This document shows, piece after piece, positions 3,878 to 43,361 of a stretch of DNA of 64,000 bases (within the stretch, counting starts at the first letter, position 1; every line of letters starts with the position of its first letter). This DNA is from Alphaproteobacteria bacterium (GTDB lineage: Bacteria; Pseudomonadota; Alphaproteobacteria; GCA-2731375): the NCBI GenBank assembly GCA_965225945.1, contig CBDDBZ010000024.1, positions 64,001 through 128,000 on the forward strand, written 5' to 3'. The position numbers and the translations under genes were made by a program. The notes beneath the pieces are model-generated. The model saw nothing but the letters and a program-made list of their open reading frames with translations. It had not been told where the DNA came from and made no database searches.

Positions 3878-5565
3878 ATGCAAGAGCCCAAGCAAACTCT
3901 GGCGCACGTCATCGCCGATCAGATGGCCAAGTACGGGGGGTTCATCCTCGTCGGCCTGTTCCTGCTTCCGGTCATCATCGTGCCCATCTGGGTCGGCGAC
4001 CTCGCGCGGTTGCTGGAGATCCTCGAGGAATTCCTGCCGATCCTGATGTTGATGTCCCTCGCGATCCTGCTCTTCACGGGCTATCCGGTGGCCTTCATTC
4101 TGGGCGGGTTGGCGATTTGCTACGGCTTCGTGGGATGGTTCTTCGGAATTTTCGAGATCCAAGAGTTCTTCAATTTCGTGCCGCGCATCTGGATCGGCGC
4201 CGCCGAGAACCTGGTGCTCGTCGCGGTGCCCGCCTTCATCGTCATGGGCATCATGATGGAGCGGAGCGGCGTTGCCCACCGCATGCTTTATTCCTGCCAG
4301 GTCTTGCTGCGCCGGGTGCCGGGCGCGCTCTGCCTCTCCGTCACCGTGATGGGCACGATCCTCGCGGCGATGACCGGAATCATCGGCGCGTCGGTGACGA
4401 TGATGAATTAAACTCCGGTTCGGTTTTCAGAACAATCAAGAATTAGAGCGGCGTTGCCCACCGCATGCTTTATTCCTGCCAGGTCTTGCTGCGCCGGGTG
4501 CCGGGCGCGCTCTGCCTCTCCGTCACCGTGATGGGCACGATCCTCGCGGCGATGACCGGAATCATCGGCGCGTCGGTGACGATGATGACCGCCATGGCGC
4601 TGCCGACGATGCTCAAGCAGGGCTACGATCAGGGCCTGGCGACGGGCTCGATCTGCGCCTCCGGTTGTCTCGGCATCCTGATCCCGCCCTCGATCATGCT
4701 GATCATCATGGCGGATCTGCTCTCGATCTCGGTCGGCAGCCTGTTCATGGCGGCGCTCGGCCCGGGACTGATACTCGCCTCGCTGTATCTGATCTACATC
4801 TTCTTGATCTCCACATTTCGGCCCTCGGTCGCGCCGCCGCTACCCTCGGAGATGCTGAACTTGCCGCGCAAGGAAATGCCCCCGTTGATCCTGAAGGGCT
4901 TCCTTCCGCCGGTCTTCCTGATCGCGCTCATCAAATGCTCGATCCTGTTCGGCTGGGCCACCCCCAGCGAGGCGGGCGCGGTGGGCGCCTTCGGGGCGTT
5001 CGTTCTCGCTGCCTTCTACGGGACGTTGAAATGGCCGATGCTCAGGTCCGTTTGCCACACCTCGGCGAACACGATCGCGATGGTCTTCTTCATCATCATC
5101 ACCGCGACCTGCTTCGCCTACGTCTTCCGCTCGCTCGGCGGCGACGATGTGGTCGATGGTTTGATCCGCGAGGCGGGCCTCGACACCTGGGGCCTGCTGT
5201 TCCTGATCATGGGCATCGTCTTCGTGCTGGGCTTCTTCCTCGATTGGCTGGAGATCACGCTCATCATCCTGCCGATCTTCGCCCCGATGGTGGCGACCTT
5301 CGACTTCGGCGATCACGTGGCGAAGATGGACACGCTCTACTGGTTCACGGTGCTGCTGGCGATCAATTTGCAGACCTCGTTCCTGACCCCGCCGTTCGGC
5401 TATGCCCTGTTTTACCTGAAGGGGATCGCGCCGCCGGAGGTCACGCTTCTCAGCATCTATCGCGGGATCATTCCGTTCGTCATCCTGCAGCTCATCGGGC
5501 TGGGGATCGTGCTGAGGTTTCCGGAGATTGCCTTGTGGCTGCCTAGAGCGGTCTATGGCGGCTGA
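3878..5565 (+). pseudogene. dctM: TRAP transporter large permease, split into 3878-4411 and 4465-5565 by an insertion plus duplication
   Basis: GYPVAF, GILIPPS, ATPSEAG, LQTSFLTPPFG motifs; net 182-bp insertion gives TAA at 4409-4411. Confidence 0.9.
4264..4588 (+). repeat. 143-bp direct duplication (4264-4406 / 4446-4588) separated by a 39-bp foreign insert
   Basis: Identical copies offset by 182 bp; insert ATTAAACTCCGGTTCGGTTTTCAGAACAATCAAGAATTA. Confidence 0.95.
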
Positions 5566-6281: not shown

Positions 6282-6990
6282 CGCGCTTCAGGTGTGAAGC
6301 GCATCGCCGGGCCGCCCCAAGCCAGCCCGGGGCCGCATTCTCACCGATTCCTGAATGTGGGAAAGTACACGTGACGCGAAGCGAAGGACGTCTTCACGGG
6401 GGACGAAATCGGGTAGGCGGGTTCCTCGCGGTTCCCGCCTCCCACACCACCGGGCATACGTTCTACGTACCACGGCGGTTTCCGGTTAGTTGCAACGCTC
6501 GGAACCTGTCGGCTAGGGGGATGAGCCCCTGGCCGTCGAACCAAGCCAGGGTCATGGCCTCGGTGGCTTGGGGGCTGAGGGACTTGCGCCACCAGCCCTT
6601 GCCGGAGAGAGCCAAGATCCATGCCCGCCATTCGGGCACCCCAAGGCTTCGCAGAAAATCCGCTTGCGCCTTGGTGCGCTTGCATTGCTTGAGCCGGACA
6701 CAGCGCAGTTTTCGGCGGATCCATCCGTCGAGACGCCGTAGTTGTCTCCCGCAACGGGCATGGCGGAAATACGTCACCCAACCGGCGAGGAAGCTGTTCA
6801 GCTCGCCGACCATGCGCGCGAGGCTGACGCCCCGGTTGCGCCGGGTGATTTCGCGAACCCGTTGCTTCGCCCGCCGCAGGCTTTGGGGCGCAATGCCGAG
6901 CGATCCATCCGGCAAAAGTCGGTGGCCGAGGAACCTGCGTTCCCAGACCGGAGCGACGGCACTTTTCTCCTGGTTGATCTGAAGATGCAA

Positions 6991-7747
6991 CCTTGCCTAT
7001 CCGGTTATCACCCACACCCACTATATGTAGTGTGCACCCATTTTACTGAGTAAAGCTCGGTGCAGGTCGAAGCGGAGATATCTCCGGCGATGCCGAGCAG
7101 GGACTCGGACGGCATTGTAGCGCCTTTTAGGCGACACTTTAGCGTGGTGGAAATCCTAATCATTGAGTCGGATTTGGCAAAACGCCACGTTGCATAAAGG
7201 ACCGTCACTTCATTGAAATTTATCTGAAATCGGAGGTGAACGACACCGATGGAATATTCCAGGAAATCAGAGCTTCATTGAATTGTAGGATTCGAGTGCC
7301 GGATTATTCACAAATAGCTCTGTGAACTGGTTTTCAAGTTCGCTCAATACGTCATATGAAGTAAACGGATTGAGGATCACGTTCTTGCGTGTCGCTTCGT
7401 CTTCGCTGCGACTCAAAACGCGCAGGAGACTAACAGGCGCGGACGGGTTCTTCGCAACGATTCGTGCCAGCGCGTCGCTTTCTTCGACTAGTGCCGTCAA
7501 TCGCTCAGACGATGTCGTTTCATCAGCAGCTTCCCGTCTGGCCGTGGGTTTCTTCGTTTTTCCCTTGGTCGCCACCGTTCCGTCCCCCGATGTTAAGTAC
7601 GTGACGTGAATTAAACTCCGGTTCGGTTTTCAGAACAATCAAGAATTAGCCGGATCGCCTCCTCAATGCGCCTGCGCCGGCCCTTGCCTGCAGTCCAAGG
7701 AGACACACTACATATAGTGGGTGTGGGTGATAACCGGATAGGCAAGG
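6991..7747. mobile_element. 757-bp non-autonomous TIR element with cargo ORF
   Basis: 44-bp perfect TIRs (6991-7034 / 7704-7747); TSD ATGCAA (or GATGCAAC if the TIR is 1 bp shorter); no transposase. Confidence 0.92.
7267..7575 (-). CDS. Small leucine-rich-repeat-variant (LRV)-like protein, cargo of the TIR element
   Basis: Repeats VAKNPSAPVSLLRVLS / VILNPFTSYDVLSEL / VNNPAL resemble LRV units. Confidence 0.55.
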   Translation of the reverse strand: MATKGKTKKPTARREAADETTSSERLTALVEESDALARIVAKNPSAPVSLLRVLSRSEDEATRKNVILNPFTSYDVLSELENQFTELFVNNPALESYNSMKL

Positions 7748-8864
7748 ATGCAACCTGCCTTGGAGGAATTTGGCCACCGAGGCCATCACCCGTTCGCCTG
7801 CCGCCTGGCTGCGAACATAGATGTTCACATCGTCGGCGTAACGGCAGAAGCGATGGCCCCGCGCCTCCAGCATCTGGTCCAGGTCGTCCAGTAGAAGATT
7901 GGCCAGCAGCGGCGACAGCGGGCCGCCTTGCGGCGTACCCTCATGGCGCCGGATGCAGACGCCGGCTTGCATCATCCCCGCTTGCAGGAAACGCCGGATG
8001 ATGCGCAGCAGGCGCTTGTCGCCAATGCGCCCAGCCAGTCGGGACATCAGAATGTCGTGCTTGACCCGGTCGAAGAACGTCTCCAAATCCAGGTCGACCA
8101 CGATCCCGTGGCCTTCGGCGACGTATTTGCCTGCTTGGGCCAGAGCATCGTGGGCGCTCCGTCCCGGACGGAAGCCAAAACTCGAACCCGAGAAAGCCGG
8201 ATCGAGAATTGGCTGAAGGACTTGCAGGATGGCTTGCTGAACCAGACGGTCCAGCACCGTCGGGATGCCCAATTGCCGCATCCCGCCCCCCGGCTTGGGA
8301 ATCGAGACCCCCTTCACCGGTTGTGGCCGATAACCGCCTCGGGCCCACTGCGCCACCAGCGCATCCTTGTGATCGGCGAGCCAGGGCCGTAGGTCTAGGA
8401 TGGTCATCCCATCCACCCCCGCCGACCCCTTATTCGCCTTCACCCGCCTGTAGGCTTGGCTCATGTCGGTGGCGATGAAAAACCGCGCTTAGATGGTGAT
8501 TTCAGCGACATCGGGCATCGTGGCGCTGTAGCTGCGTGGTTTGCAGGCGGGAGTTGGCTCGGCGCAGCGGTGGGTAAGTAGCCCGCCGCGGCGACCGCCA
8601 AGAGTCTGGCGGCGGCGGGCTGCTTATCCACCGCGGGCGGGCGTCTCGATTCCTGTTTTGGCTGGCTGGCGGCGGCGGTTCCGCGGACCTGACAAGGGGA
8701 GCCGCGGGAGTACACTCGGGCCGCTGAGAACGATGCGGCGCCGGCCCCGTTTGCTTGCTGGCAACGACCGGCACCGCACCCCCCGAGCCATGCAAGGCAC
8801 GACCCATATGCGCAGTATCGTGCGGGTTTGGGCGTGGGTCCACCCCGTTCTCATCGGCTGCGCG

Positions 8865-9305
8865 ATGAAGAACACCGCCCGCCTGTTCAACTGCGCCTCG
8901 TGCCATCAACAGGTGGTTCTCTGCCGGCACTGCGACCACGGCAACATCTACTGTTCACGGAGCTGCAGCGATCGGGTGCGCCGGCGATCGCAGCGCCATG
9001 CCGGGCAGCGCTACCAGAACAGCCGGCGGGGCCGTCACAAGCATGCTGAGCGCCAGCGGCGCTATCGCGAACGCCGGCGGCGCCGGACGCCGGTGAATCG
9101 GCGCCGCGGGCAGGAAGTGACGCATCACCCTTTGACCGCCGCGCGGCGGCGTCCTGTTGTGGCGCGGACGCCGGCAGGGCGTCCCGGAACACGGCCCTTC
9201 GGGCACGAGCGGCCCGCCAGGGTCTTCCGCTGCGATCGCTGCGGCCGGTTCTGCGGGCAGGCGGTCTATCCGGGGCTGCGCCCGACGGGAAAGGGGGTGA
9301 GATGA
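8865..9305 (+). CDS. Cys-rich, Arg-rich putative Zn-ribbon protein
   Basis: CASC, CRHC, CSRSC and CDRC clusters; ATGA overlap with istA. Confidence 0.7.
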
Positions 9306-14341: not shown

Positions 14342-14445
14342 TTCTCCCCTCCCTCCCAATATAGGTCGAACTTTCAGGCTGACGAAAGCTCTGCTCGCGT
14401 CATCCAAAACAACGCTGCGAAGCAGGTATCGGTTGCAAAAATTTT

Positions 14446-15464
14446 GGCTCAATTCGTGAATTGTATGCATTAGTGATAGAGTGCCTGGAACGTCAGGAGG
14501 TTGGGTTATGGACGGCAAGGGTTTCCAGGTGTGGCTTTCGGCGGCGCGCGGGCTGACGCGCGCGCAGCGGCGCGAGGCGCTCGCGGTGCTGTCGGGCCGG
14601 AGCGAGGGCGAGGCATCGAAGGCCGCGATCGAGCTTGGTGTGGACGAGGCCCGGCGCTGTCCGCACTGCGCGAGCGAAGGGGCGGTTTCGCGCGGTATGG
14701 CGCGGGGTCTGCGGCGCTACCAGTGCAAGGGCTGCGGCAGGACCTTCAACGCGCTGAGCGGTACGCCGCTGTCGGGCTTGCACCACAAGGAACGCTGGCT
14801 GTCGTTCGGGGCGTCGCTGGCGAAGGGGGAGACGGTGAAGGCGTCGGCGGCGCGCTGCGACGTGGCGGTGAGCACGGCGTTCCGCTGGCGTCACCGGTTT
14901 CTGGCGGCGGCGCGGAGCGATTCGGAGGTGCTCAAGGGGATCGTGGAAGCGGACGAGACCTACGTCCTGGAGAGCCGGAAGGGCGCGCGCGGGCTGGGGC
15001 GCAAGGCACGGCGGCGGGGCGGCAAGGCGAAGAAGCGCGGCCTCTCGCGCGAGCAGGTACCGGTTCTCATGGCGGCGGACCAGAGCGGAACGACGGTCAG
15101 CGCGGTGCTGCCCAGGGTCGATGCGGCGGCGCTCACGGCTGCCCTCGACCCGGTGGTCGCGAAGGACGCCCTGCTGGTCTCCGACGGCGGCGCGAGCTAC
15201 CCACCGTGCGCCGCCGCGCTCGGGGTGAGCCACGAAGCACTCAACCGCTCGATGAACGTTCGGGGCGATCTGCATGTGCAGACGGTGAACAGCCGCCACA
15301 GCCGGTTGAAGGACTTCCTGCGTCCCCGCCGCGGCATCGCCACCCGCTATCTGGACAACTACCTGAGCTGGTTCCACCTCGTCGGCCTCGCCCCCGGCGC
15401 CAATGACCGAGCCTGCCTCGCCGCCGCCGTAACAAGGTGACGCATACAATTCACGAATTGAGCC
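14446..15464 (+). mobile_element. IS1595-family element
   Basis: 23-bp perfect TIR GGCTCAATTCGTGAATTGTATGC; 8-bp TSD AAAATTTT. Confidence 0.95.
14508..15440 (+). CDS. IS1595-family transposase
   Basis: CPHC/CKGC Zn ribbon, VEADETY, LVSDG, HVQTVNSRH. Confidence 0.92.
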   Translation: MDGKGFQVWLSAARGLTRAQRREALAVLSGRSEGEASKAAIELGVDEARRCPHCASEGAVSRGMARGLRRYQCKGCGRTFNALSGTPLSGLHHKERWLSFGASLAKGETVKASAARCDVAVSTAFRWRHRFLAAARSDSEVLKGIVEADETYVLESRKGARGLGRKARRRGGKAKKRGLSREQVPVLMAADQSGTTVSAVLPRVDAAALTAALDPVVAKDALLVSDGGASYPPCAAALGVSHEALNRSMNVRGDLHVQTVNSRHSRLKDFLRPRRGIATRYLDNYLSWFHLVGLAPGANDRACLAAAVTR

Positions 15465-15632
15465 AAAATTTTTCGCAGCGACGCCCATAGCAAAGTCGAT
15501 GAATTCCCCGGAGTCAAGCCCGCCTCTCCGAGCGCCCAAAGGGGACCAAAGCAAAAGCGGTAGCCATGGAGATTGCGGTGGGCCGCGGAAATCGGCGAGC
15601 GAATTCCGGATCGACCGGCCGGTGGAATGAAT

Positions 15633-16992: not shown

Positions 16993-18911
16993 GTTACGGT
17001 AGGAATGCGCATTGCTGCGCACCCCCCGCGCAGATCCGGACGTGGTCGTTGAACCATCCGGCTCCTACCTCGGGTGCTTGACGGCAAACCGCTGGTCCGG
17101 CCATGGGTGGCGGATGGAGGCGCGTGGCCACAGGATTTCGGTCATGCGCTCCAGTCGCTTCCAACTAAATCGGGCTCGCTGGGACCGGCGGCGTAGCGCC
17201 CGCATCCACCGGCGTTGCAGCCTGCGGAGGAACGCACGGATGAACCGGCCTGACCCTGGGACGGCAAAGTAGTTGAGCCAGCCATTGCAGACTCGCCCCA
17301 GCCACCTACCAACTTCCCAGATGTCGTGGTGCCAGCGCTTGCGGAGCACCTCGTCGATGCGCGCCAGGGTCCTGTTGACCCGTTTGGCGACCGGTTTGCG
17401 ACCAAGCCGAAAGCGTCCTCTCAGGGTCGTCGTGCAATAGTGCGTGAGGCCCAGAAAGTCGAAAGTCTCCGGCTTGCCCACCCCGCGCTGGCGCCGGTTC
17501 AAATCCGCGAACCGGCCAAACTCCACGAGGCGGGTCTTGTCCTGGTGGAGGCTGAGACCGAACCGGGCCAGCCTCTCCCGAACGTCGCGGAGGTACCGCT
17601 CCGCATCCCGCTTGTGTTGGAACCCGACAACGATATCGTCAGCGTAACGGACGATGATCGCTTCGCCATCCGGGACGTTCGGGCGCCATTTCTTGTGGAA
17701 CCACAAGTCGAGCACGTAATGCAGGAACACGTTCGCCAAGACGGGGGAGACTATTGCCCCCTGCGGCGTGCCCATACCCGTATCTGCCCATGACCCACTC
17801 TCTATGACGCCGGCGTTCAGCCATTTCCGGATCAGACGGATGACCCGCCTGTCTCCGATGCGGTGCTCTAGGAACGTGATCAACCAATCCCGCGGGATCG
17901 TGTCGAAGTACGCCCGGAGGTCTGCATCGACTATCCAGCTGACCTTGCGCCGTTCTATCCCGAAGGCCAGGGCATCGAGCGCATCGTGCGCCCCCCGCCC
18001 CGGTCGGAACCCGTAGCTGAAGCCAAGAAACACCACCTCGTAGATCGGTGTCAGGATCACATCCACAACCGCCTTCTGGACGACCTTGTCCTCCAGCGCC
18101 GCGATCCCGAGCGGTCGTGTCCCCCCGTCCGGCTTGGGTATCTCTACCCGCCGAACCGGCGGCGCCCGGTACGCTCCCCCTCTGTGCAGGCGCCGGTGCA
18201 GGTCGAGCAGGCGCTCATCCAGACCCTCGCCGTACATGTCCCACGTAACGCCGTCGACACCGGCTGCTGCGTCCTTCTTCAATGCGAAGTAGGCCGCACC
18301 GAGCGCGTCCGGCGTAATGTGGTGGAAGAGCGCAGTGAGACGTTCCTTCGGGTTTCTCTCTGCAGCTTTCCGTATCCGGGCCGCCGCCTGTGGCACGCTT
18401 ACCCGACACTGTGTTCGGCGCGTGCTTTGGCAATCCGGATTCCCCTTGGTTGAGGCCCTTTCCTCCGGCGACTCCGCAGAAGCTCGCGCTCCCTTGTTCG
18501 CCGCCCTCACAGGTCGTACGGCCTCATCCGACTTCTTCAAACCGTTCATCATAGGCTTCGGTTTTCTCCATTCCCTACGCGGCCCCTTTACGACAACCGG
18601 GGCAGTTTGAAGACCTCCCAGGGTCCCAACAGAAGGCGTGCGAACGTGCATGGGTTCTCTGACACCGCGGGGCTCGCCGACATCTCACCAAAACGACGCC
18701 TGCGATATTGCCTTCGACCGATCTGAAAGCCTCGGCACCCCGGACCATCGCTTTTACGGTGCTCAATAGCCCTGCCCATCCATGCCGCTACCGACGCTTC
18801 GCCTGCCCCCTCACGGGAGCCAACGCACGGCTCGCGGAGAAACGTGGTTCGGTTACTCCTTCGTTCCGGGGGACTTGCACCCCCTACCTTCTGCCAGTTC
18901 GCCTGGCGCAC
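16993..18911 (-). mobile_element. Intact group II intron (1919 nt)
   Basis: GTGCG at 18911; DV/DVI ending CCTACCGTAAC at 16993. Confidence 0.92.
17065..18552 (-). CDS. ltrA: Group II intron RT/maturase (no En domain)
   Basis: GTPQGAIVSPVL, RYADD, FDFLG; probable start MMNGLKKSD. Confidence 0.92.
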   Translation of the reverse strand: MMNGLKKSDEAVRPVRAANKGARASAESPEERASTKGNPDCQSTRRTQCRVSVPQAAARIRKAAERNPKERLTALFHHITPDALGAAYFALKKDAAAGVDGVTWDMYGEGLDERLLDLHRRLHRGGAYRAPPVRRVEIPKPDGGTRPLGIAALEDKVVQKAVVDVILTPIYEVVFLGFSYGFRPGRGAHDALDALAFGIERRKVSWIVDADLRAYFDTIPRDWLITFLEHRIGDRRVIRLIRKWLNAGVIESGSWADTGMGTPQGAIVSPVLANVFLHYVLDLWFHKKWRPNVPDGEAIIVRYADDIVVGFQHKRDAERYLRDVRERLARFGLSLHQDKTRLVEFGRFADLNRRQRGVGKPETFDFLGLTHYCTTTLRGRFRLGRKPVAKRVNRTLARIDEVLRKRWHHDIWEVGRWLGRVCNGWLNYFAVPGSGRFIRAFLRRLQRRWMRALRRRSQRARFSWKRLERMTEILWPRASIRHPWPDQRFAVKHPR

Positions 18912-21348: not shown

Positions 21349-22303
21349 CCGACACCGCTTCGAATAACGCTATTGCCGCCGCTCACCCGCGGCCACGATC
21401 CCGCTCGCCGCAACACCATCGAGCGCGCAGGGAACCACCTGCGAGACCCGCCGGCATCGACCCGAAGTCGCCATCAAACCACCCTGCCGGTGTCGTCGCC
21501 AATCAGATCCGAGCCATCCAGCAGCGCCGGCCACCCGAGAAAGCTGGCCCGCCGCTCGCAAATCCCCATAGACCGAGCGTGCCGCACCGCCGAGCCTAGT
21601 CCTGCCCGCGGTTTCCTCCCTTAAGCGTTGTCCGACACCTGCCGATCCAGTCCGCCGGATGCAACCCCTGCGCCTCGGCAGGTGTCCGACAACGCTTAAC
21701 AGAACCGGGCGACCTGATAGCGGAAGGCATTCAGGGCCGGAGCGTTGGTCGGCACGGCGAAGTACGCGAAGTAGCCTCGCACCACCGATGCCAGCCAGCG
21801 GCCCTGCTCGGCGATTGGCTGATGCCGTCGCCGGAGGAGTTCGCGCTTGATCTCCCCGAGCTTCGCCCCCATGCGCTTACGCCGCGTCTTGCGTCGCAGT
21901 TGGAACCGTCCCTTCCGGTCCTTCGCGCAGATGTGCGTGAAGCCCAGGAAGTCGAACGTCTCCGGCTTGCCGTCGCCTCGGCCCTTCCGACTTTTCGCGG
22001 CGTGCCGCCCAAACTCGATGAGCCGGGTTTTCTCCGCGAACAGCGCGAGGCCGAAAGCCCGCAAGCGTTCCTCCAATGCCGCCCGGAAGGCAAGCGCGTC
22101 TTCCCGGTACTCGAAGCCCACGACGAAGTCGTCCGCGTAGCGGACGATGACCATGTCGCAGTGGGTATGGCGCCGACGCCATTGGTGCGCCCACAAGTCC
22201 AGGACATAGTGCAGGTAGACGTTGGAGAGCAGCGGTGAGAGCACCGCGCCCTGTGGCGTCCCCTGCTCCGGGACCGTGAGTTTGCCATCTTGCATAATGC
22301 CGG

Positions 22304-23762
22304 CTTCTCTATCGCGTCCTCGGTCAAGCCCTTTCTGGTTACGTCATGCCATATTCCTTCTTCACGTCGTTCCGCACTGGCGGATGTTGCCGCACGGGGC
22401 TCTTGCTTCTCTTCGAGGTTGGCGCGTGGCCACCTCATGATGGGATCAGAGGATGAGGCGGTTCAATCTTTCGCGCGTCCTTGCCGCCGGTCAGCGGCAG
22501 GGTCTACCGACATTACGAACTCACCCCACCCGTCGTCCCCGTGAGGACATCTCTCTGCCTAAGCAGAACTCGTTGATCTCCTTGTCAGTACAGTCGAAGG
22601 TTCAATCCGCCTTGACGGCGTCAGCAGGGCCGTTGCTCCAGCGGAACTCGGTGCCGTCGACCCACATGCGGTGCAGAACTACGGCCAGGCGCCTCGCGAC
22701 GGCGACGATGGCACGGCGCATGCCACGTCGCTGGGCCACTCGCATGCCCCACGCCTTCAGCCAGGACCATTTCCGGCCGTGGGTGAGGAGGGACTGCGCG
22801 GCCTCGTACAGCATCGTGCGGAGCATGCTGTCGCCGCACTTGGACACGCAACCATCATAGTCGATCTCGCCGGACTGGAAGCGCTTCGGCGTCAGGCCGA
22901 CATGCGCGCCGACCGCCCTGGAGTGAACGAAGCGCTGCGGCTGATCGATGGTAGCCCGGTAGGTCAGCGCGACGACCACGCCGACGCCGGGTGCCGTCAT
23001 GAGCCGTCGGCAGACCGGGTCATGGCGGACCGTGTCGAGCACCATTTTGTGGAGGACCGCGAATTGCTGGCGCATCACTCGCCGGACGGTGAGCAGCGGT
23101 TCCACAATAGCGGCCAGCTTCGGAAAGTCTTCGACCAGCTCGCGGATCCGCGCCTCGTACCCGCGGGTGCTGACCGTGCCCACCTTGAGACCGAAGTTGC
23201 GCAGCGTCCCGCGTAGATCGTTCTCGACGTCGAGCAGTTTTCTCTGGAGCAGCTTGCGGCTGGTCAGCAGCATCCGCTGCTCCTGGGCAACCAGGGTCTT
23301 CACATGCACCGGCTTGAACAGCCCGACCCGCATCATCTGGGCGATGCCGCGCGCATCGTTGCGGTCGCTCTTGTTGATCTGCTGCCCCTTGAGCAGTGCT
23401 TTCATGTGCCGAGTCTCGACGCAGACAACCGGCAGCCCGGCGGCGGCAAGACCGTTGACCAGCCATTGCGAGAGCGGACCGGCTTCGATCCCGATCCGGC
23501 CATAGGCCACGCCGATCGAGGTCAGCAGCGTGACGATGTAGTCCGGCTCGGTCGGCACTTTCCGCTCCAACACCACCTCGCCAACCTCGTCGACGACGCA
23601 TACCGCCGTCTCCTTCACCGAAACATCCAGACCTACGAAATGTGCCATCGTCATCGCTCCTTCCTCGATGTTCGAGGTCAGGGCGACCCCGATTTATCGA
23701 TCATGCGTGAAGGGGCTGCCATCATCCTGATATCATCAGCCACAGCCGCCGCGATATACCAT
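22304..23762 (-). mobile_element. IS110-family (IS1111-type) element, copy 1
   Basis: 1459 bp, AAG core at both junctions, subterminal CGCGATA/TATCGCG inverted repeat. Confidence 0.9.
22602..23654 (-). CDS. IS110 DEDD recombinase
   Basis: VGLDVS, GIEAG, KSDRNDA, QSGE. Confidence 0.95.
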   Translation of the reverse strand: MTMAHFVGLDVSVKETAVCVVDEVGEVVLERKVPTEPDYIVTLLTSIGVAYGRIGIEAGPLSQWLVNGLAAAGLPVVCVETRHMKALLKGQQINKSDRNDARGIAQMMRVGLFKPVHVKTLVAQEQRMLLTSRKLLQRKLLDVENDLRGTLRNFGLKVGTVSTRGYEARIRELVEDFPKLAAIVEPLLTVRRVMRQQFAVLHKMVLDTVRHDPVCRRLMTAPGVGVVVALTYRATIDQPQRFVHSRAVGAHVGLTPKRFQSGEIDYDGCVSKCGDSMLRTMLYEAAQSLLTHGRKWSWLKAWGMRVAQRRGMRRAIVAVARRLAVVLHRMWVDGTEFRWSNGPADAVKAD

Positions 23763-24572
23763 CTTTCAGCCACTTGGCCGTAAGGCGGAGGAGACGCCGA
23801 TCTCCGATCCGGTGCTCTAGGAACCCTCTCAGCCAGTTTTGGTCGGATGAGTCGAAGAAGCCGGATATATCGGCGTCCAGGATCCAGTTCACCTCGCGCT
23901 CGGTGATCGCCACCGCGAGCGCGTCCAGCGCGTCGTGCTGGTTGCGCCCCGGACGGAAGCCGTAGCTGAACCCGAGGAAATCTTCCTCGTAAATCTGGTT
24001 CAGCACCGTGCTCACGGCCATATGGGCGATCTTGTCCTCCAGGGCCGCGATCCCCAATGCCCGCGCCGAGCCGTCCGACTTCGCGATGAATTGTCGCCGG
24101 CTCGGCAGAGCCCGGTAGCCGCCCCGATGGAGCCGCCCATGCAGGTTCGGGAGACGCTGCTCCAGATCCTGGCCGTACTCTTGCCACGTCATGTCGTCCA
24201 CTCCGGGCGCCGCGTCGCGCTTCAGCGCCAGGTAGGAGGCCCGAAGGAGTTCGACATCGACATGGTGCAGCAGCGCGGTGAACTTTAGTTTCCCATCTCG
24301 TCTCGCCGCTTCTCGTACGCGCTCCAGCCCCTGTGACAGGCTTTCCCGACTCCGCGTCCGGCGCCTGCGTGTCAATCGGCGTTGAACATTGACCCCCTAT
24401 CGGCGTGCAATGTTGACCCCTTTGGGGATGCACGGCGGAGGTCGTACAGGTAGTCCATAGGAGGGGCCCGCGCGCGGGCCGACGCGCCCACCACGCGGCT
24501 GGCGGCGGACCGCGCGTGGGAGGTTCCTGTGGGCCCACCTGGGCGACCGGGCGGCAGGTGGATCGGTTGCCT

Positions 24573-25301
24573 TTAGGACCGATTCTTGAAGCGCCAGGAG
24601 TCGTTTCCGGTCTCGATGATCTCGCAGTGGTGCGTCAGACGATCGAGGAGCGCGGTGGTCATCTTGGCGTCGCCGAAGACGGACGGCCATTCGCCGAAGG
24701 TCAGGTTGGTGGTGACGATGATCGAGGTGCGCTCGTAGAGCCGGCTGACGAGGTGGAACAGCAGCTGGCCTCCGGTTTGGGCGAAGGGCAGGTAGCCGAG
24801 CTCGTCGAGGATGACGAGGTCGCGCCGGGCCAGCTGATCGGCGAGCCGGCCCTGGCGGCCGGCGCGGGCTTCGGCCTCGAGCCGGTTGACCAGGTCGACG
24901 ACGTTGAAGAAGCGGCCCCGGGCGCCATCGCGGATGCAGGCCCGCGCGATGGCGACGGCGAGATGGCTCTTGCCGGTGCCGGTGCCGCCGATCAGCACGG
25001 CGTTGCGCTGGTTGGCCAGGAAGCCGCCGACCGCCAACTCGCGGACCAGCGGCTCGTTGACCGGGGTGTCGGTGAAGTCGAAGTCGGCCAGCTCCTTGGC
25101 CAGCGGCAGCTTGGCGCCACTCATCTGGTACTTGATGGATCGCGCCTGCTTGTCGGCGATCTCGGCCTTCAACAGCTCGCCGATGATTCGCTGCATCGGA
25201 TGCTGGCGCTTGAGGCCGTCGGCGAGCACCTCGTCGAACGCGTCGCGCATGCCGGCGAGCTTGAGTGCGGCCATCATCTCCAGGACCTCATGGCGCTCCA
25301 T
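24573..25301 (-). CDS. istB: IS21 helper ATPase
   Basis: [22 protein letters not shown]. Confidence 0.95.
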
Positions 25302-26799
25302 GGCCGACCCCCCTCAAGCGGTCGTAGCGGGTGCAATCGGCCACCGGCTCAAAGCGAAGACGCAGGTTCGCGGGCGTCGGGATCGGCGCCGTCTCGGACG
25401 GCTGGCGCCGACGATTGAGGATGTTGAGCACGACGTCGGCGCTGCACACGCCGCCAGCGAGCGCCTCGGCACAGGCGGCCTCCACCGCCGCCAGCCCATC
25501 CGCCAGCACGGCGGTGAGGATCTCGACCATCTGCCTGTCGCCGTCGTCGTGGCCGGCGAGCCGGACGCGCACGCGACCCAGGGCGCCGGGCAGCGCCCAG
25601 TCCTTGAACGGCGCGCCGTTACGAAGCGCACCGGGCTTCCTCGCCAGCACGGGCACGTAGTGCCACGGGTCATAGACGGTCTGGTCGCGGCCGAAGCGCC
25701 GGGCATGCTCGGCGACGATCTCGCCGTCCTGGCGGATGACGATGCGATCGGCGTAGGCATGGACCTCGACCGGACGGCCGACGGCGCGCGCCGCCACGCT
25801 GTACTTGTTGCTGTCGAAGCGCACCAGGCAGGTCTTCGACACCGACGCCGGGACCGCGTGGAAGCCGTCGAACGGCCCGCGATAGCCGACCAGGGACGGA
25901 CGCTCGTCCTCGAACACCTGCCAGACAGTCCTGTCCTTGAACACCGGGTGGGGATGACGCCGGGCGTAGGCGACGCACTGGTCCAAGAGCCAGGCGTTGA
26001 GTTCGTCGTAGGTCTTGAAGCGCAGCCGCGGGGTGAAGAACCGACCGCGGATGATCCCGACCTGGTTCTCGACCTGCCCCTTCTCCCATCCCGCTCCCGG
26101 CGTGCATGCTGTCGGTTCGACCAGGTAGTGGCCACACATCTGCACGAAGCGCCGGTTGAACGCGCGCTCCTTGCCGATGAGGACGGTCTGCACCGCCGTC
26201 TTCATGTTGTCGTAGATGCCTCGCCGGCAGGCACCCTGGAACAGCCGGAATGCCCGGTCGTGGGCGTCGAACACCATCTCCTGGCTCTCGCGCGGATAAG
26301 CGCGGACGAAGAACATTCGGCTGTGGCACAGCCGGACGTGCGCGACCTTGACCTTGGTCGTCACCCCCGCCAGCACCACGTACTCGTGGCTCCAGTCGAA
26401 CTGATAGGCCTCGCCCGGCGAGAACACCAACGGCACATAGGTCTGCGCCGTCGATGCCGAACGGCGCCACCGCCACGCCTTGGCGTAGCGCCGCACCGCG
26501 TCGTAGCCGCCGCCATAGCCCAGACCCTCGAGGGCTTCGGAGATCCGTAGCAGCGTCAGCCGCTCCCGCTTCGACTTGGTCTCGTTGGCCTCCAGCATCC
26601 GCTCCAGCTCGGCCGTCCACGGCCCCAGCTTCGGCATCGGCTGGACCCGCCGGTCGTAGGTGAACGCCGTCGCCTGCGAACGGATCACCTTGCGCACCGT
26701 GTTGCCCGAGACCTTCACGTCCCGCACGATCTCCTTGATCGGCTTCCCCTTGACGAAATACTCCCGCCGGATCCGCGCTATCGTCTCCACGACCAACAT
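25288..26799 (-). CDS. istA: IS21 transposase
   Basis: [21 protein letters not shown]. Confidence 0.95.
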
Positions 26800-27420
26800 C
26801 CCCCACCACCTCGTCCGCCCAAAAACGAGGTGACTTGGACTAGCCAGGCTCAGGGGGTCAAATTTGGACGCCGATCACCCCTCAACAGGGGTCAACTTTG
26901 CACGCCGTTCCACACCTGCGTTGCTGACCCACGTTCCCCTTGGCTCCGCCCCTTCCCTCCACCGGCTCCGCCGCCTCGCACAAGGCTTTGTTCGTCGGCT
27001 TCCCAGGTACTATGGGCGAATCTGACTTCTCTCGAGCGTGCGTCATCGGCTACGGCCCTTCGGGCCTTCCCGATGCGGACCGCGCAAACGCAAGGACGGC
27101 CACTCGAGAGATCTCCCGGTTTCCGCTCAGGCGATTTCCATGCGTGCGTGGGCTCTACGACCGCGCAAGGCCCTCCGAGCGCTCGCCAATGCGCGCTCGT
27201 CGGTGTGGCCTTCCCCATAGACCCACAGGGTCGGCGCCTCGAATGCGCATTTTTTGCGGCTCAATACCCAGCCCACATGTACCCCTGTCAACGCTTCGCC
27301 TCGCCCTCGCGGACCGCAGGCGCATGACTCGGGGCCGGTGTGGATGGCTAACCCTTCACCGTACGGCTCTCTCATCCGCTACTCCTCGCCGGCGATACCG
27401 GCGCACGGGTCATTCTACTT

Positions 27421-28450
27421 CCTGATTACGCACTTCACTCAGCCGGGTTGATGTGGTACAAATCATGAACAAATGGCGGTTTTTCTGGAGGTTCACAATG
27501 CCACGCAACAACGTTCAGTTCCAGAAGGGGCTCAGCGAAGCGCGTTTTCGTGAGTTGTACGGTAGCGAGGAGCAGTGTCGCGAGGCCCTGTTCCGCTGGC
27601 GCTGGCCGGAGGGCTTCTCCTGCCCCCGATGCGGCGCCACGCGCCATTGCGAGATCGCCGGCCGCAAGCTCTACCAATGCGCCGCCTGCCGTCATCAAGT
27701 CTCGCTGACCGCCGGCACGCTCTTCCACGCGACCAAGCTGGCGCTGACCCTGTGGTTTTCGGCGATCTATCACATGACCCAATCGAAGAAGGGGATCTCC
27801 TCCATCGAACTCGGCCGCCGGCTCGGCGTCACCCAGACCACGGCCTGGAAGATCAAGCAGAAACTGATGCAGTCCATGCTCGAGCGCGATGCCAAATTGC
27901 CGCTCACCGGGCGGGTGGAGATGGACGATGCCTACCTCGGCGGCCGGCGTTCCGGGGCCAAGCGCGGCCGAGGCGCGCCGGGCAAGACGCCGTTCGTCGC
28001 CGCCGTCCAGACCACGGCGGAGGGCCAGCCCGTGCGCATCAAGCTCCGCCGCGTCAAGGGCTTCCGCAAGAGCGAGATCGCCAAGATGGCCAAGCGCGAC
28101 CTGAGCCCGCTGGCGACGGTTGTCAGCGATGGGCTCGGCTGCTTCACCGCGGTCACCGCGCAAGGCTGTGCGCACCATCCGATACCCACTGGCTCCGGAC
28201 CCGGGGCCGTCGCCGTGCCCGCCTTCAAATGGGTCAACACCACCCTCGGCAACCTCAAAAACACCCTGCGCGGTACCTACCATGCGATCCGACCCAAGCA
28301 TGTGCCGCGCTAACTGGCGGCGTTCCAGTACCGATACAACCGCCGCTACCGGCTCGCCGACATGATCGAAGCCCTCGGCCGCGATGCCCTGCGCACGCCG
28401 CCCATGCCATATCGGCTCCTGAAATTGGCTGAGGTTAGTGCGTAATCAGG
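27421..28450 (+). mobile_element. IS1595-family element
   Basis: TIR CCTGATTACGCACT...; 8-bp TSD TTCTACTT. Confidence 0.93.
27498..28445 (+). pseudogene. IS1595 transposase with premature stop at 28311-28313
   Basis: VEMDDAY, VSDG; homologous frame continues (LAAFQYRYNRR) after TAA. Confidence 0.85.
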
Positions 28451-28664
28451 TTCTACTTTATCGACCGCTGCGGCGGGCCTCTTCGTGGCTGGTGTCGCCA
28501 GTGCCAGCGGAGGCGGAAAAGTACAATGACCCCTTTTTCTGACGTGTTCGCGCCGCCCGCCCTCATCCACATGGGTGGCACACGGCAGTTGGTGCTTTGC
28601 CGCGCCGATCCCGACGGCTTCGCCGTCGAATTCACGGCGTCTTCGCAGCGCGTAGGACGGCGCC

Positions 28665-32670: not shown

Positions 32671-32886
32671 TTCGGCCGGAAGAATCTGCTGGCCCGGCTA
32701 TGGGGCATGTTTCCCCGCTTAGCACCTTTTAAGGGAACGCCCGATCCTGGGGTACTCCGGACGTGGCCGGAGTGAAAGATGGTGTATCGCGGCGGCTGTG
32801 GCTGATGATATCAGGATGATGGCAGCCCCTTCACGCATGATCGTTCAATCGGGGTCGCCCTGACCTCGAACATCGAGGAAGGAGCG

Positions 32887-33939
32887 ATGACGATGGCACA
32901 TTTCGTAGGTCTGGATGTTTCGGTGAAGGAGACGGCGGTATGCGTCGTCGACGAGGTTGGCGAGGTGGTGTTGGAGCGGAAAGTACCGACCGAGCCGGAC
33001 GACATCGTCACGCTGCTGACCTCGATCGGCGTGGCCTATGGCCGGATCGGGATCGAAGCCGGTCCGCTCTCGCAATGGCTGGTCAACGGTCTTGCCGCCG
33101 CCGGGCTGCCGGTTGTCTGCGTCGAGACTCGGCACATGAAAGCACTGCTCAAGGGGCAGCAGGTCAACAAGAGCGACCGCAACGATGCGCGCGGCATCGC
33201 CCAGATGATGCGGGTCGGGCTGTTCAAGCCGGTGCATGTGAAGACCCTGGTTGCCCAGGAGCAGCGGATGCTGCTGACCAGCCGCAAGCTGCTCCAGAGA
33301 AAACTGCTCGACGTCGAGAACGATCTACGCGGGACGCTGCGCAACTTCGGTCTCAAGGTGGGCATGGTCAGCACCCGCGGGTACGAGGCGCGGATCCGCG
33401 AGCTGGTCGAAGACTTTCCGAAGCTGGCCGCTATTGTGGAACCGCTGCTCACCGTCCGGCGAGTGATGCGCCGGCAGTTCGCGGTCCTCCACAAAATGGT
33501 GCTCGACACGGTCCGCCATGACCCGGTCTGCCGACGGCTCGTGACGGCACCCGGCGTCGGCGTGGTCGTCGCGCTGACCTACCGGGCTACCATTGATCAG
33601 CCGCAGCGCTTCGTTCACTCCAGGGCGGTCGGCGCGCATGTCGGCCTGACGCCGAAGCGCTTCCAGTCCGGCGAGATCGACTATGATGGTCGCGTGTCCA
33701 AGTGCGGCGACAGCATGCTCCGCACGATGCTGTACGAGGCCGCGCAGTCCCTCCTCGCCCACGGCCGGAAATGGTCCTGGCTGAAGGCGTGGGGCATGCG
33801 AGTGGCCCAGCGACGTGGCATGCGCCGTGCCATCGTCGCCGTCGCGAGGCGCCTGGCCGTAGTTCTGCACCGCATGTGGGTCGACGGCACCGAGTTCCGC
33901 TGGAGCAACGGCCCTGCTGACGCCGTCAAGGCGGATTGA
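32887..33939 (+). CDS. IS110 DEDD recombinase
   Basis: Same motifs as copy 1. Confidence 0.95.
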   Translation: MTMAHFVGLDVSVKETAVCVVDEVGEVVLERKVPTEPDDIVTLLTSIGVAYGRIGIEAGPLSQWLVNGLAAAGLPVVCVETRHMKALLKGQQVNKSDRNDARGIAQMMRVGLFKPVHVKTLVAQEQRMLLTSRKLLQRKLLDVENDLRGTLRNFGLKVGMVSTRGYEARIRELVEDFPKLAAIVEPLLTVRRVMRRQFAVLHKMVLDTVRHDPVCRRLVTAPGVGVVVALTYRATIDQPQRFVHSRAVGAHVGLTPKRFQSGEIDYDGRVSKCGDSMLRTMLYEAAQSLLAHGRKWSWLKAWGMRVAQRRGMRRAIVAVARRLAVVLHRMWVDGTEFRWSNGPADAVKAD

Positions 33940-33999
33940 ACCTTCGACTGTACTGACAAGGAGATCAACGAGTTCTGCTTAGGCAGAGAGATGTCCTCA

Positions 34000-34215
34000 C
34001 GGGGACGACGGGTGGGGTGAGTTCGTAATGTCGGTAGACCCTGCCGCTGACCGGCGGCAAGGACGCGCGAAAGATTGAACCGCCTCATCCTCTGATCCCA
34101 TCATGAGGTGGTCACGCGCCAACCTCGAAGAGAAGCAAGAGCCCCGTGCGGCAACATCAGCCAGTGCGGAACGACGTGAAGAAGGAATATGGCATGATGT
34201 AACCAGAAAGGGCTT
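34000..34215 (+). ncRNA. Putative bridge/seek RNA in the IS110 right non-coding end (also in copy 1, ~22325-22540 minus)
   Basis: Stem-enclosed internal loop carrying AATGTCGG (34027-34034), complementary to the target flank; boundaries approximate. Confidence 0.65.
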
Positions 34216-34299
34216 GACCAAGGCCGCGATAGAGAAGCCGACATTCGGCCGATCAGCGCCATCGCATCAGGCCATTGCCGCTCTCTTCCACTCCCCACC

Positions 34300-34625: not shown

Positions 34626-36516
34626 CGCCGTTATCTCACCGAGGGGCAGAAGGGGCTTGCCATTGGTGCGACTGGTCACTTTCCCGAGGGGGTTGCGCGC
34701 GGACCTAACCCCAAAATCGGCAGAAAACGGCCAATCATTGGAAGGTGGGCCAGCTGGCCCATCTTCAGAACACTCAATAGACGAATTCGGCGATGACGAA
34801 GATCACGATGACGAGGATCGCCGGCGGGACCACGGCGTATTTGATCACCGCCCGTCCGATCGCCTTCAGCTCGGCGTCGTTTGAGATCTACGTCATCAAC
34901 AGCGGCAGGACCGCCCCCAGCAACGGTATCGCGACGATCAGCACTTGATCGATCCTACCAGAGGCTGGTCGCAACCAGATCCCTTGAGAACCAGATCGCC
35001 AAGGCGAGCGATATCAGCACGACCTGTAGGGAAAACATCTGGGTGACGCGAAGGGAGTTCATCATGAGTCCGCTCCTGAAAGTGTTTCAATGGGCCCGAT
35101 ATGGGGTCGGCCGTCGCCACCCACATCACCCAAATGGATATCAATTTTTTCTGGAATTGGTATCCCCTTCATTGCCCCGATCCGGCCCGGGCAGGGGCAT
35201 GGGGCGGCCGACCCCCGCCCCCCTCGGCGTCACGGCGATCGGGCGGGACTCCAGTAGCCAAAAATACTCCCGCTACTCGAATCCTCGGAACCACGTCCGT
35301 TGCCGTGCTTGTAGGGTGGCAGCGACCGCTGGCCCGGTCGGGTTGTCGAGACAATGCAAGGCGAGCGTGTCTCGCCGGGCATACTTGCCCACGCTACGCG
35401 CGCGACGAGGTTTTCGGGCGTGTCCCGTGCTGGGCCGAGCGGTCGCCTCGCTTGAGCGCCAAAAGGCGCCGATCGGCAGCGGCTTTTTTGTATAATTTCC
35501 GTACGAGGGCTTTTCGGGGAGGCCGATCCCGTAAGAGGGGCAAAACCCCGGGCATTTTTTGAGCCGGGGGGATTCTCAGCGGACTCGAAGTATGAATCAA
35601 TGGGGCGATGGCCGAATCGCTCCCGGATATTGAGGCCCTGAGCCTGGACGACCTCAAGCGGTTGGTGCTCCGGCAATTGGAGGAGGTCGCGCGTCTGCGA
35701 GTGGAGAACGCGGCCTTGCGCGAGGAGATCGCGCGGCTGAAAGGGCTCAAGGGGCGGCCCAAGATCAAGCCGAGCGGCATGGAGAAGAAGGCGGCCGAAC
35801 GACGCAAGACCAAGGAACGGCGCCAACAGGCCTGCCGGGGCAAGAAGAACGCGCGGCTGCGTATCGACGAGGAGCGCATCCTTGTGGCCGAGGTTCCGCC
35901 GGGCTCGCGCTTCAAGGGCACCGAGCCCTACGTGGTCCAAGATCTCTTGGTGCGCCCATATACCCTGCGCTACCACCGGCAACGCTGGGTGACGCCGTCG
36001 GGAGAGACGGTGATAGCGGCCTTGCCAGCGGGGGTGAAGGGCCACTTCGGGTCGGAGTTGCGCCGCTTCGTGGTGGACCTCTACCACCAGGGCCAGACCA
36101 CGGTGGCGCGTCTGGTGGCCTTGCTCAGCGATATCGGGGTGGCGATCTCCAAGCGCCAGGTGATGCGGCTCCTGAACGAGGACCAGGCGTGCTTCACCGG
36201 CGAGGCGGGCGCGGTTCTGCGCGCCGGCCTGGAGACCGCGGCCTGGGTCAGCGTGGACGACACCGGCGCCCGCCATCGGGCGCGCAACGGCGTGTGCACG
36301 CAGATCGGCAACGACCATTTCGCCTGGTTCGCCACCGGCTTTTCCAAGAGCCGGCGGAACTTCCTGGAACTGCTGCGGGCCGGTCACGAAGACTACCTGG
36401 TTGTGGAACGGCGTGCAAAGTTGACCCCTGTTGAGGGGTGATCGGCGTCCAAATTTGACCCCCTGAGCCTGGCTAGTCCAAGTCACCTCGTTTTTGGGCG
36501 GACGAGGTGGTGGGGG

Positions 36517-38028
36517 ATGTTGGTCGTGGAGACGATAGCGCGGATCCGGCGGGAGTATTTCGTCAAGGGGAAGCCGATCAAGGAGATCGTGCGGGACGTG
36601 AAGGTCTCGGGCAACACGGTGCGCAAGGTGATCCGTTCGCAGGCGACGGCGTTCACCTACGACCGGCGGGTCCAGCCGATGCCGAAGCTGGGGCCGTGGA
36701 CGGCCGAGCTGGAGCGGATGCTGGAGGCCAACGAGACCAAGTCGAAGCGGGAGCGGCTGACGCTGCTACGGATCTCCGAAGCCCTCGAGGGTCTGGGCTA
36801 TGGCGGCGGCTACGACGCGGTGCGGCGCTACGCCAAGGCGTGGCGGTGGCGCCGTTCGGCATCGACGGCGCAGACCTATGTGCCGTTGGTGTTCTCGCCG
36901 GGCGAGGCCTATCAGTTCGACTGGAGCCACGAGTACGTGGTGCTGGCGGGGGTGACGACCAAGGTCAAGGTCGCGCACGTCCGGCTGTGCCACAGCCGAA
37001 TGTTCTTCGTCCGCGCTTATCCGCGCGAGAGCCAGGAGATGGTGTTCGACGCCCACGACCGGGCATTCCGGCTGTTCCAGGGTGCCTGCCGGCGAGGCAT
37101 CTACGACAACATGAAGACGGCGGTGCAGACCGTCCTCATCGGCAAGGAGCGCGCGTTCAACCGGCGCTTCGTGCAGATGTGTGGCCACTACCTGGTCGAA
37201 CCGACAGCATGCACGCCGGGAGCGGGATGGGAGAAGGGGCAGGTCGAGAACCAGGTCGGGATCATCCGCGGTCGGTTCTTCACCCCGCGGCTGCGCTTCA
37301 AGACCTACGACGAACTCAACGCCTGGCTCTTGGACCAGTGCGTCGCCTACGCCCGGCGTCATCCCCACCCGGTGTTCAAGGACAGGACTGTCTGGCAGGT
37401 GTTCGAGGACGAGCGTCCGTCCCTGGTCGGCTATCGCGGGCCGTTCGACGGCTTCCACGCGGTCCCGGCGTCGGTGTCGAAGACCTGCCTGGTGCGCTTC
37501 GACAGCAACAAGTACAGCGTGGCGGCGCGCGCCGTCGGCCGTCCGGTCGAGGTCCATGCCTACGCCGATCGCATCGTCATCCGCCAGGACGGCGAGATCG
37601 TCGCCGAGCATGCCCGGCGCTTCGGCCGCGACCAGACCGTCTATGACCCGTGGCACTACGTGCCCGTGCTGGCGAGGAAGCCCGGTGCGCTTCGTAACGG
37701 CGCGCCGTTCAAGGACTGGGCGCTGCCCGGCGCCCTGGGTCGCGTGCGCGTCCGGCTCGCCGGCCACGACGACGGCGACAGGCAGATGGTCGAGATCCTC
37801 ACCGCCGTGCTGGCGGATGGGCTGGCGGCGGTGGAGGCCGCCTGTGCCGAGGCGCTCGCTGGCGGCGTGTGCAGCGCCGACGTCGTGCTCAACATCCTCA
37901 ATCGTCGGCGCCAGCCGTCCGAGACGGCGCCGATCCCGACGCCCGCGAACCTGCGTCTTCGCTTTGAGCCGGTGGCCGATTGCACCCGCTACGACCGCTT
38001 GAGGGGGGTCGGCCATGGAGCGCCATGA
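36517..38028 (+). CDS. istA: IS21 transposase
   Basis: Protein identical to 25288-26799. Confidence 0.95.
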
Positions 38029-43360: not shown

Positions 43361-43361
43361 G

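Follow-up and report, generated by a model that had tools for sequence, protein, structure and literature searches.

The 64,000-nt stretch of alphaproteobacterial DNA considered here (positions 64,001 to 128,000 of contig CBDDBZ010000024.1, GenBank assembly GCA_965225945.1; hereafter "the window", to which all coordinates refer) contains, at 6991-7747, a unit of 757 nt that is bounded by perfect inverted repeats and carries a gene for a 102-aa protein and no transposase, which raises the question of where such a unit obtained its ends and how it could move. A preliminary description of the locus had proposed a cargo element that is bounded by terminal inverted repeats (TIRs) and behaves like a mobile insertion cassette (MIC). 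That proposal is borne out, as Pfam detects no DDE domain in any open reading frame (ORF) of the unit, the cargo ORF is intact, and the whole has the structure by which MICs are recognized, i.e., inverted repeats of the insertion sequence (IS) type around a passenger ORF, with no transposase. Our analysis makes it highly probable that this unit (copy 1 of the cassette) is a non-autonomous, ISAcr1-like derivative of the IS1595 family, a mobile insertion cassette that is moved in trans and generates 8-bp duplications in AT-rich targets.

The ends of the cassette carry much of the argument. A 44-nt sequence occurs with no mismatch at 6991-7034 (plus strand), 7704-7747 (minus strand) and 43233-43276 (minus strand), the last of these sites belonging to a second copy, and when up to 3 mismatches are allowed these remain its only three matches in the window, with none in 100 shuffles. 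The right TIR of copy 1 is an exact inverted copy of the left, and the boundaries read ...GAAGATGCAA / CCTTGCC...GGCAAGG / ATGCAACCTG..., so that the length of the cassette is 755-757 bp, depending on how the ends are read. Its G+C content is 51.0%, as compared to 60.3% and 67.2% in the 2-kb flanks and 65.0% in the window; the perfect 44-bp repeats and the lower G+C had both been described correctly. When the 757 nt were compared by blastn with 72,556 plasmid records, 11 records matched, none of them covering 80% or more of the query. Element nt 1-69 match at 82.4-82.6% in eight of these records (seven from Acidiphilium and one from Acidithiobacillus), at genes annotated as "IS1595-like element ISAcr1 family transposase", and the other three are sphingomonad plasmids in which nt 4-127 match at 71.8%. 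ISAcr1 is an element of 1,082 bp from plasmids of Acidiphilium cryptum and A. multivorum (e.g., NC_009469.1, 71260-72341) and encodes a transposase of 338 aa with Zn_ribbon_IS1595 (PF12760, 53.4 bits) and DDE_Tnp_IS1595 (PF12762, 137.4 bits) domains and a match to NCBIfam NF033547 (201.3 bits). The cassette ends agree with the transposase-3' end of ISAcr1 at 40/44 positions and with its transposase-5' end at 36/44, while the two ends of ISAcr1 itself agree at 35/44, and the terminal 16 bases are identical across the cassette ends and both ends of ISAcr1. The TIR family, unrecognized in the preliminary description, can thus be named as IS1595, and within it as ISAcr1-like. Both cassette ends are closer to the 3' end of ISAcr1 than to the 5' end, a weak hint that the right end may have arisen by copying of the left one.

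The left end also retains a piece of the ancestral gene. The transposase gene of ISAcr1 is read from the right end toward the left, and its stop codon lies within the left repeat. In the cassette the minus strand from 7103 to 7011 encodes SLLGIAGDISASTCTELYSVKWVHTTYSGCG, followed by a stop at 7008-7010, and these last 31 codons are identical at 20/31 positions to residues 308-338 of the ISAcr1 transposase by tblastn. The remnant (7008-7103, minus strand) is in frame and terminates inside the left TIR exactly as the ISAcr1 transposase does, the left TIR being of the ISAcr1 transposase-3'-end type and overlapping the last codons and the stop of the remnant. Apart from this left-end remnant, tblastn with the ISAcr1 transposase found no transposase similarity in the element, which has therefore lost approximately 300 codons, the zinc ribbon and the entire DDE domain among them. 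The cassette is accordingly not an autonomous IS1595 insertion sequence, in that it encodes no DDE_Tnp_IS1595 transposase, and is placed in the family as a derivative by its homologous terminal inverted repeats. The preliminary description had looked for the lost transposase in other places. The GGAGG (7232-7236) and ATG (7249-7251) that it took for a transposase stub are present but lie on the wrong strand, open a frame of only 10 codons and resemble nothing, and the short open tail running into the right TIR is not the remnant, which is located at the opposite end. It had also entertained the idea that the TIR might match a catalogued IS of which the interior was simply a deletion remnant. 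The first part of this has come true, as the TIR matches ISAcr1, but the cargo ORF is foreign to that IS, intact and endowed with 234 homologues.

Between the remnant and the right TIR the cassette consists of three parts. The first is an element-specific spacer (7104-7266, 46% GC) that has no transposase similarity and holds the GGAGG and ATG just mentioned (7232-7281, plus strand). The second is the cargo gene (7267-7575, minus strand), the only sizeable ORF of the element with homologues, whose start lies 172 nt from the right end and whose orientation is that expected of the lost transposase gene. The third is the region upstream of that gene (7576-7703, minus strand), which includes a 43-nt AT-rich stretch (7607-7649) approximately 30 nt upstream of the start codon. 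A promoter/terminator scan reported one promoter-like site where 0.5 would be expected, at 7180-7153 on the minus strand and thus within the spacer, and called no promoter upstream of the cargo ORF; TTGTTC-N17-TTTAAT is visible by eye on the coding strand within 7607-7649, where the tool made no call, and 7576-7703 presumably serves as promoter and leader of the cargo gene. A peptide from another frame of this region can be recognized in the homologue entries P0027, P0052 and P0060, the latter two at 82-83% protein identity, and so the 43-nt stretch and the rest of the upstream region are an integral part of the element. The preliminary view of the 43 nt as a separately acquired motif does not agree with this position within a conserved upstream region.

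Copy 1 is flanked by a clean target-site duplication (TSD), as had been noted. If the ends are taken as 44 nt, it has a length of 6 bp (ATGCAA). A G precedes the left ATGCAA and a C follows the right one, and the duplication can equally well be read as the 8 bp GATGCAAC at 6984-6991 and 7747-7754, the last base of the left duplicate then being the first base of the 44-nt repeat and the ends of the element reading CTTGCC...GGCAAG. Seven insertions were examined for duplications, namely five copies of ISAcr1 (L001 and L010-L013) and the two copies in the window. Matching flanks were present in three of them (copy 1, L011 with GCTGATTC and L013 with GAACGTTC), and all three fit an 8-bp pattern of G-N6-C. 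Members of the IS1595 family usually have TSDs of 8 bp, according to PMC8101967, and copy 1 shows the 8 bp that an IS1595 derivative should have. Eight bp is the likelier length for copy 1; the other reading is a duplication of 6 bp with a preference for G...C targets. The flanks that adjoin the ends (gaagaaa, gtttctt, gattaaa and aacaaa) are AT-rich for these genomes.

Both window copies lie inside other mobile elements, as originally proposed. Copy 1 interrupts a group II intron (6408-8464, minus strand), splitting its reverse transcriptase (RT)/maturase ORF into an RT N-part at 7748-8464 and a maturase part at 6463-6990; Pfam detects RVT_1 at 7646-8464 (121.2 bits) and GIIM at 6463-6990 (66.6 bits). 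The domain V-VI RNA at 6408-6480 matches Rfam Intron_gpII at 32.3 bits, under the gathering score of 40 (E 6.5e-4), and Rfam detected nothing in 6400-8900 besides this host intron. The RT frame reads ...KFLQGRLH before the insertion and LHLQINQEKS after it, the repeated Leu-His being the target duplication. An intact RT elsewhere in the window (17068-18684) has diverged too far to provide an empty-site control in the C-terminal part.

Copy 2 (42413-43276, plus strand) splits an IS21 istB gene (IstB_IS21, 41834-42454) between ...ILVTSN and NKPFDEW. This istB is itself frameshifted upstream and is cut downstream by a decayed repeat at about 43358-44400, a better copy of which (49168-50233) has IS3-type integrase domains. 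The second copy reported in the preliminary description is thus real, but it is not the equivalent of the first. It is 864 nt long, its left end contains a 5-nt insertion (its right end is perfect), its cargo ORF is disrupted, and the duplication at its flanks is imperfect. A blastn alignment with copy 1 has 864 columns at 84.5% identity, with 27 mismatches, 36 gap openings and 107 gap columns, and the net excess of 107 nt lies in copy 2. Under gap-friendly scoring, copy 2 retains 743 of copy 1's 757 bases in their original order with 2 mismatches, interspersed with 49 insertions (119 nt, 74% G+C) and 8 small gaps (12 nt); 20 shuffles of copy 2 gave 489 matched bases on average and 498 at most. 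The insertions break the frames of both the cargo ORF and the transposase remnant, for which reason we regard copy 1 as the canonical form, a choice that is confirmed by the copies in metagenome-assembled genomes (MAGs) described below. Copy 1 is a recent, intact insertion and copy 2 an older, dead one. The spectrum of small GC-rich insertions with almost no substitutions in copy 2 is not that of ordinary decay; the neighboring IS3-type remnant, likewise rich in indels, has many more substitutions, the 1,097 columns of its alignment with its better copy containing 101 mismatches as well as 30 gap openings. An assembly artefact in a repeat is one possible explanation. The frequent location of the cassette inside mobile elements probably reflects survival in dispensable DNA and not targeting.

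The protein encoded by the cargo gene is all-helical, with a basic N-terminal tail. It passes the cut-off of the Pfam family LRV_2 (PF25591; 34.1 bits against a cut-off of 27, E 2.6e-8, residues 12-64), and the preliminary label of an LRV-like ORF was apt in this sense, but against the older LRV family (PF01816) it reaches 19.4 bits, under the cut-off of 21.6, and it does not belong to the classical LRV proteins, which are represented by the Azotobacter LRV structure. The Atlas cluster nearest to it is 97% LRV_2. Homology searches recovered 234 proteins at E <= 0.001 among 251 candidates, and among the 120 homologues listed, 85 have exactly 102 aa and 98 have 99-104 aa. The exact protein is found on 44 contigs and its sister variants on 54, 28, 21 and 15 contigs; a truncated form of 77 aa is found on 40. 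In all sources checked it is named only "hypothetical protein". A MAFFT alignment of the window protein with 54 homologues, which were selected as 102 aa and are therefore equal in length by selection, is gapless, with 74-99% identity to the window protein and 11 invariant columns (R25, L26, L29, D59, N69, D75, L77, L80, L94, N98 and K101). The structure prediction that had been suggested for this protein produced an AlphaFold2 model with seven helices after a disordered basic N-terminal tail, at a mean predicted local distance difference test (pLDDT) score of 74.0 and a predicted template modeling (pTM) score of 0.55. Foldseek returned 26 matches to this model in the PDB at E <= 10, 0/26 of them at E <= 0.001; a PDB sequence profile search returned two, at E 0.58 and 0.67, and none below E 0.5; and NCBIfam, PADLOC and PHROGs returned 0 families each. 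None of the structure, profile, family or plasmid searches assigned a function to the protein.

A profile search of 1.84 billion representative proteins gave 4,997 matches at E <= 0.001 and 151 at E <= 1e-30, and among 146 newly listed representatives, 139 have at least 400 aa and contain the unit repeated many times, in up to 20 stretches. A tblastn search with the cargo protein against plasmids matched only three records, all cyanobacterial, at 39-42% identity, and in the two that were opened (H27 and H29) the domain forms the N-terminus of longer hypothetical proteins. Stand-alone forms of approximately 102-104 aa persist down to 52-65% identity (P0228, P0241 and P0285). The cargo is thus a single LRV_2 unit of a kind that is used elsewhere as a building block of long repeat proteins. 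Twelve longer proteins that contain the cargo were considered as real fusions and rejected as such, as they are read-throughs into interrupted genes.

The search for further copies of the TIR that had been suggested was carried out with the 24-nt tip on contigs of species-representative genomes, a collection from which the source genome of the window seems to be absent, and recovered five loci in three alphaproteobacterial MAGs. Four of the five are pieces of the same cassette, each with different flanks: L007 (371 nt, 98.9% identical), in which the copy is truncated within the ORF, and L004 (249 nt, 99.2%), L006 (137 nt, 100%) and L003 (141 nt, 98.6%), all of which run off the end of their contigs. 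At the fifth locus (L005, 2001-2165 of JAKZRK010000017.1) a cassette end is interrupted after 27 nt by another element, whose first bases are TGTCGGTAACATG and in which an ORF opens with MRRTEQVQGLRLMKFEEIY; from its initial TGT and its resemblance to istA this may be an IS21-type element. The read-through proteins point to insertions of the cassette beside transposase genes of IS3, IS4/5-like and IS1595 elements, beside a phage gene and into another copy of the cassette. In three of these proteins (P0071, P0168 and P0156) the outward frame of the right repeat (...TLHIVGVGDNRIGK) is joined to cargo residue ~19, which implies that one copy of the cassette had inserted into the ORF of another. 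In a further entry from another assembly (P0007) the translation begins in the right repeat, crosses the upstream region and enters the ORF.

More distant relatives indicate that the gene and the ends have long been together. In P0132, which is 71% identical to the window protein, the reading frame continues about six codons past the end of the ORF into TLHIVGVCINRIGT, a translated ISAcr1-type end, and in P0133 (72% identical) LAYPVNAYTYYILSV, the translation of an ISAcr1-type end in another frame, is found about 50 codons upstream. As relatives this divergent keep ISAcr1-type ends, the association of gene and ends is old, and with the conservation of length this argues that the cargo gene is a long-standing, selected part of the element. 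The transposase remnant itself appears to vary in length. When the 66-aa ORF that contains it was compared with longer proteins, 8 matches were obtained among 25 candidates, 7 of which are chimeric read-throughs. The remaining match, P0128, is a partial transposase in which the spacer peptide FAKSDSMIRISATLKCRLKAAT is joined to a 114-residue stretch that is 74% (86/117) identical to residues 220-336 of the ISAcr1 transposase, and it represents a form of the cassette with a longer remnant. Other relatives seem to be without spacer and remnant altogether, which fits the very short contigs (e.g., 448, 569 and 575 bp) that carry many homologues of 74-88% identity. A deletion series from a long remnant to a short one to none would be the simplest reading of these forms.

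In the mechanism that we envisage, the cassette has kept both of the TIRs that the transposase recognizes, together with the last 31 transposase codons, while the rest of the transposase gene was replaced by the spacer, the LRV_2 gene in the same orientation and the upstream region of that gene. It is unable to move alone, and an ISAcr1-like DDE transposase supplied from elsewhere in the cell would cut and paste it in trans, each insertion duplicating 8 bp of a rather AT-rich target. Both the mobilization in trans and the identity of the helper are inferred, the indirect evidence for the former being the near-identical copies in different flanks. Similar arrangements are known. MIC231 of Bacillus cereus is an example of a MIC and derives from IS231, an IS4-family element. 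The concept of such cassettes is treated in PMC3129680, whose references include De Palmenaer (2004). Like the present element, MICs have inverted repeats of the IS type and one or more passenger genes, lack a transposase and are expected to depend on a cognate one in trans; the parent family is IS4 for MIC231 and IS1595 here, and the present cassette further differs in having as its cargo one small conserved protein that is kept with its ends over deep divergence. MITEs, or miniature inverted-repeat transposable elements, are non-coding by definition; they share with the cassette a small size, a lack of autonomy, IS-type ends, target duplication, multiple copies and an occurrence on very short contigs, but differ from it in having no counterpart of its intact, conserved 102-aa ORF. 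ISAcr1 has in common with the cassette the 16-nt tips, a stop codon inside the end, homologous last 31 codons and the G-N6-C duplication, and differs in its 1,082-bp length, 338-aa transposase and imperfect ends (35/44), as compared to the 757 bp, perfect ends and unrelated gene of the cassette. The activation of MICs by a cognate transposase is described in PMC3129680, which also cites Siguier et al. (2009) for IS1595-family elements that carry passenger genes ("transporter IS"). Such passenger-gene elements belong to the same family and hold genes between their ends but retain the transposase, unlike the cassette.

Several observations weigh against this interpretation. No autonomous partner is present in the window, and a search of 185,579 species-representative genomes yielded none with the same 24-nt tip. 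Among the 25 candidates there is no full-length transposase that shares the C-terminus of the remnant, a negative that counts as weak evidence by the account of the tool itself. Over the end region ISAcr1 reaches an identity of only 82.6%, and its source is another lineage (Acidiphilium). The duplication around copy 2 agrees at 5/8 positions (CCTCGAAC and GATTGAAC), the ISAcr1 copy L001 has flanks with no matching duplication, and for L010 and L012 the right end was not located by the script, so that their flanks were left out of the comparison. As for candidates close at hand, a Pfam scan covered 143 of the 152 stop-to-stop frames of at least 170 aa in the window (the rest being two that were scanned separately and seven in a 100%-identical inverted IS21 copy at 36402-38964) and detected only two IS1595-type transposases, at 14460-15437 and 27426-28310, the second of which is 28.6% identical to the ISAcr1 transposase. 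Both were rejected as the helper, their ends being unrelated to those of the cassette.

Of the alternatives, the one that fares best adds a role for the cargo: the LRV_2 protein would serve the element itself, for instance if it bound or recruited a host factor or the helper transposase, or regulated transposition, and the cassette would be a gene-bearing hyperparasite of ISAcr1-like elements. We regard this as possible but improbable. The gene stays with ISAcr1-type ends down to 71-72% identity (P0132 and P0133) and occupies the place and orientation of the lost transposase gene, and selection at the level of the host should be weak for any one copy of an element that is multi-copy and nested in junk DNA. 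The constancy of the protein (85 of the 120 homologues listed have exactly 102 aa, and the 55 aligned sequences, at 74-99% identity, are gapless with 11 invariant positions, several of them leucines) points the same way, although the equal length in the alignment is partly a product of selection and conservation could equally mean a benefit to the host or a young, fast-spreading family. Against this role, the protein resembles no transposase, regulator or DNA-binding fold (Foldseek 0/26 at E <= 0.001; nothing from NCBIfam, PADLOC or PHROGs). That the cassette is instead a dead relic, left over by deletion from an extinct IS and no longer mobile, with copies that reflect old events or segmental duplication, strikes us as very unlikely. 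It would account for the failure to find a helper transposase, the heavy decay of copy 2 and the truncation of L007, but it has to contend with the perfect 44-nt ends, intact ORF and exact duplication of copy 1, with copies in three MAGs that are 98.6-100% identical in differing flanks, with identical proteins on 44, 54 and 28 contigs, and with the insertion of one copy into another (P0071). An autonomous element in which the 102-aa protein is a new recombinase of its own can be practically dismissed, as this sole intact ORF with homologues encodes an LRV_2-type helical repeat protein in which Pfam detects no catalytic domain (LRV_2 and a sub-threshold LRV being its only matches), whose unit recurs as many as 20 times within long proteins (139/146 of those newly listed having at least 400 aa), and the ends and duplication are of the DDE IS1595 type.

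If the cassette is an ISAcr1-like derivative moved in trans, as we favor, an orphan TIR gains a family and a likely helper can be named, an ISAcr1-like IS1595 transposase. A 102-aa "hypothetical protein" that is found on dozens of contigs, many of them very short, can be assigned to a small mobile cassette, an assignment that aids annotation and explains assembly breaks. MICs and the passenger genes of IS1595 elements are already established, and what is unusual here is that one small gene has been associated with a non-autonomous element for a long time and under selection. In the limited literature collection that was searched we found no paper naming ISAcr1 or PF25591 and none whose title links IS1595 with a mobile insertion cassette or with a MITE and a passenger gene. 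The wider interest lies in a cargo gene that is kept with its ends, at constant length, over substantial divergence, and were the cargo to serve the element, the cassette would offer a simple, testable case of a non-autonomous element that encodes its own accessory factor.

The 43 nt of 7607-7649 recur in the window at 4404-4446 (plus strand). This second occurrence lies in a TRAP transporter gene, dctM, which a perfect tandem duplication of 143 nt (4264-4406 and 4446-4588) has split. At the junction of the duplicates the 43 nt form a filler, which overlaps the left duplicate by 3 nt (TGA) and the right one by 1 nt (G) and adds a stop codon to the first half of dctM; the identical stretch of copy 1 is 3.2 kb away. 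The event looks like a template-switch duplication with templated filler and not like a copy of the element. As the 4404-4446 site is the filler of a duplication junction and the upstream region in the cassette is conserved, the 43 nt were rejected as an independent mobile motif.

Other mobile elements in the window deserve brief mention. An intact-looking IS1595-family element of another group is located at 14437-15473, with perfect 32-nt inverted repeats (14437-14468 and 15442-15473) and a 326-aa frame with HTH_23 and DDE_Tnp_IS1595 domains. A third member of the family (27420-28452; Zn_ribbon_IS1595 and DDE_Tnp_IS1595) has ends beginning CCTGATTACGCAC and may be broken, as its frame stops at about 28311 and similarity to the ISAcr1 transposase continues to 28346. 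The segment 22296-38964 contains two pairs of long inverted repeats, consisting of IS21 copies at 24352-26914 and 36402-38964 (2,563 nt, 100% identical) and IS110-type copies at 22296-23768 and 32773-34245 (99% identical), with genes for TauD, metallo-beta-lactamase-fold and SDR proteins enclosed between them; this may be an invertible or a composite segment. Finally, 53016-53096 consists of three perfect tandem copies of a 25-nt unit, in which the 31-nt windows CGGCTTCGCCTCTGTATCCTTTTTCCGGCTT recur at a spacing of 25 nt.

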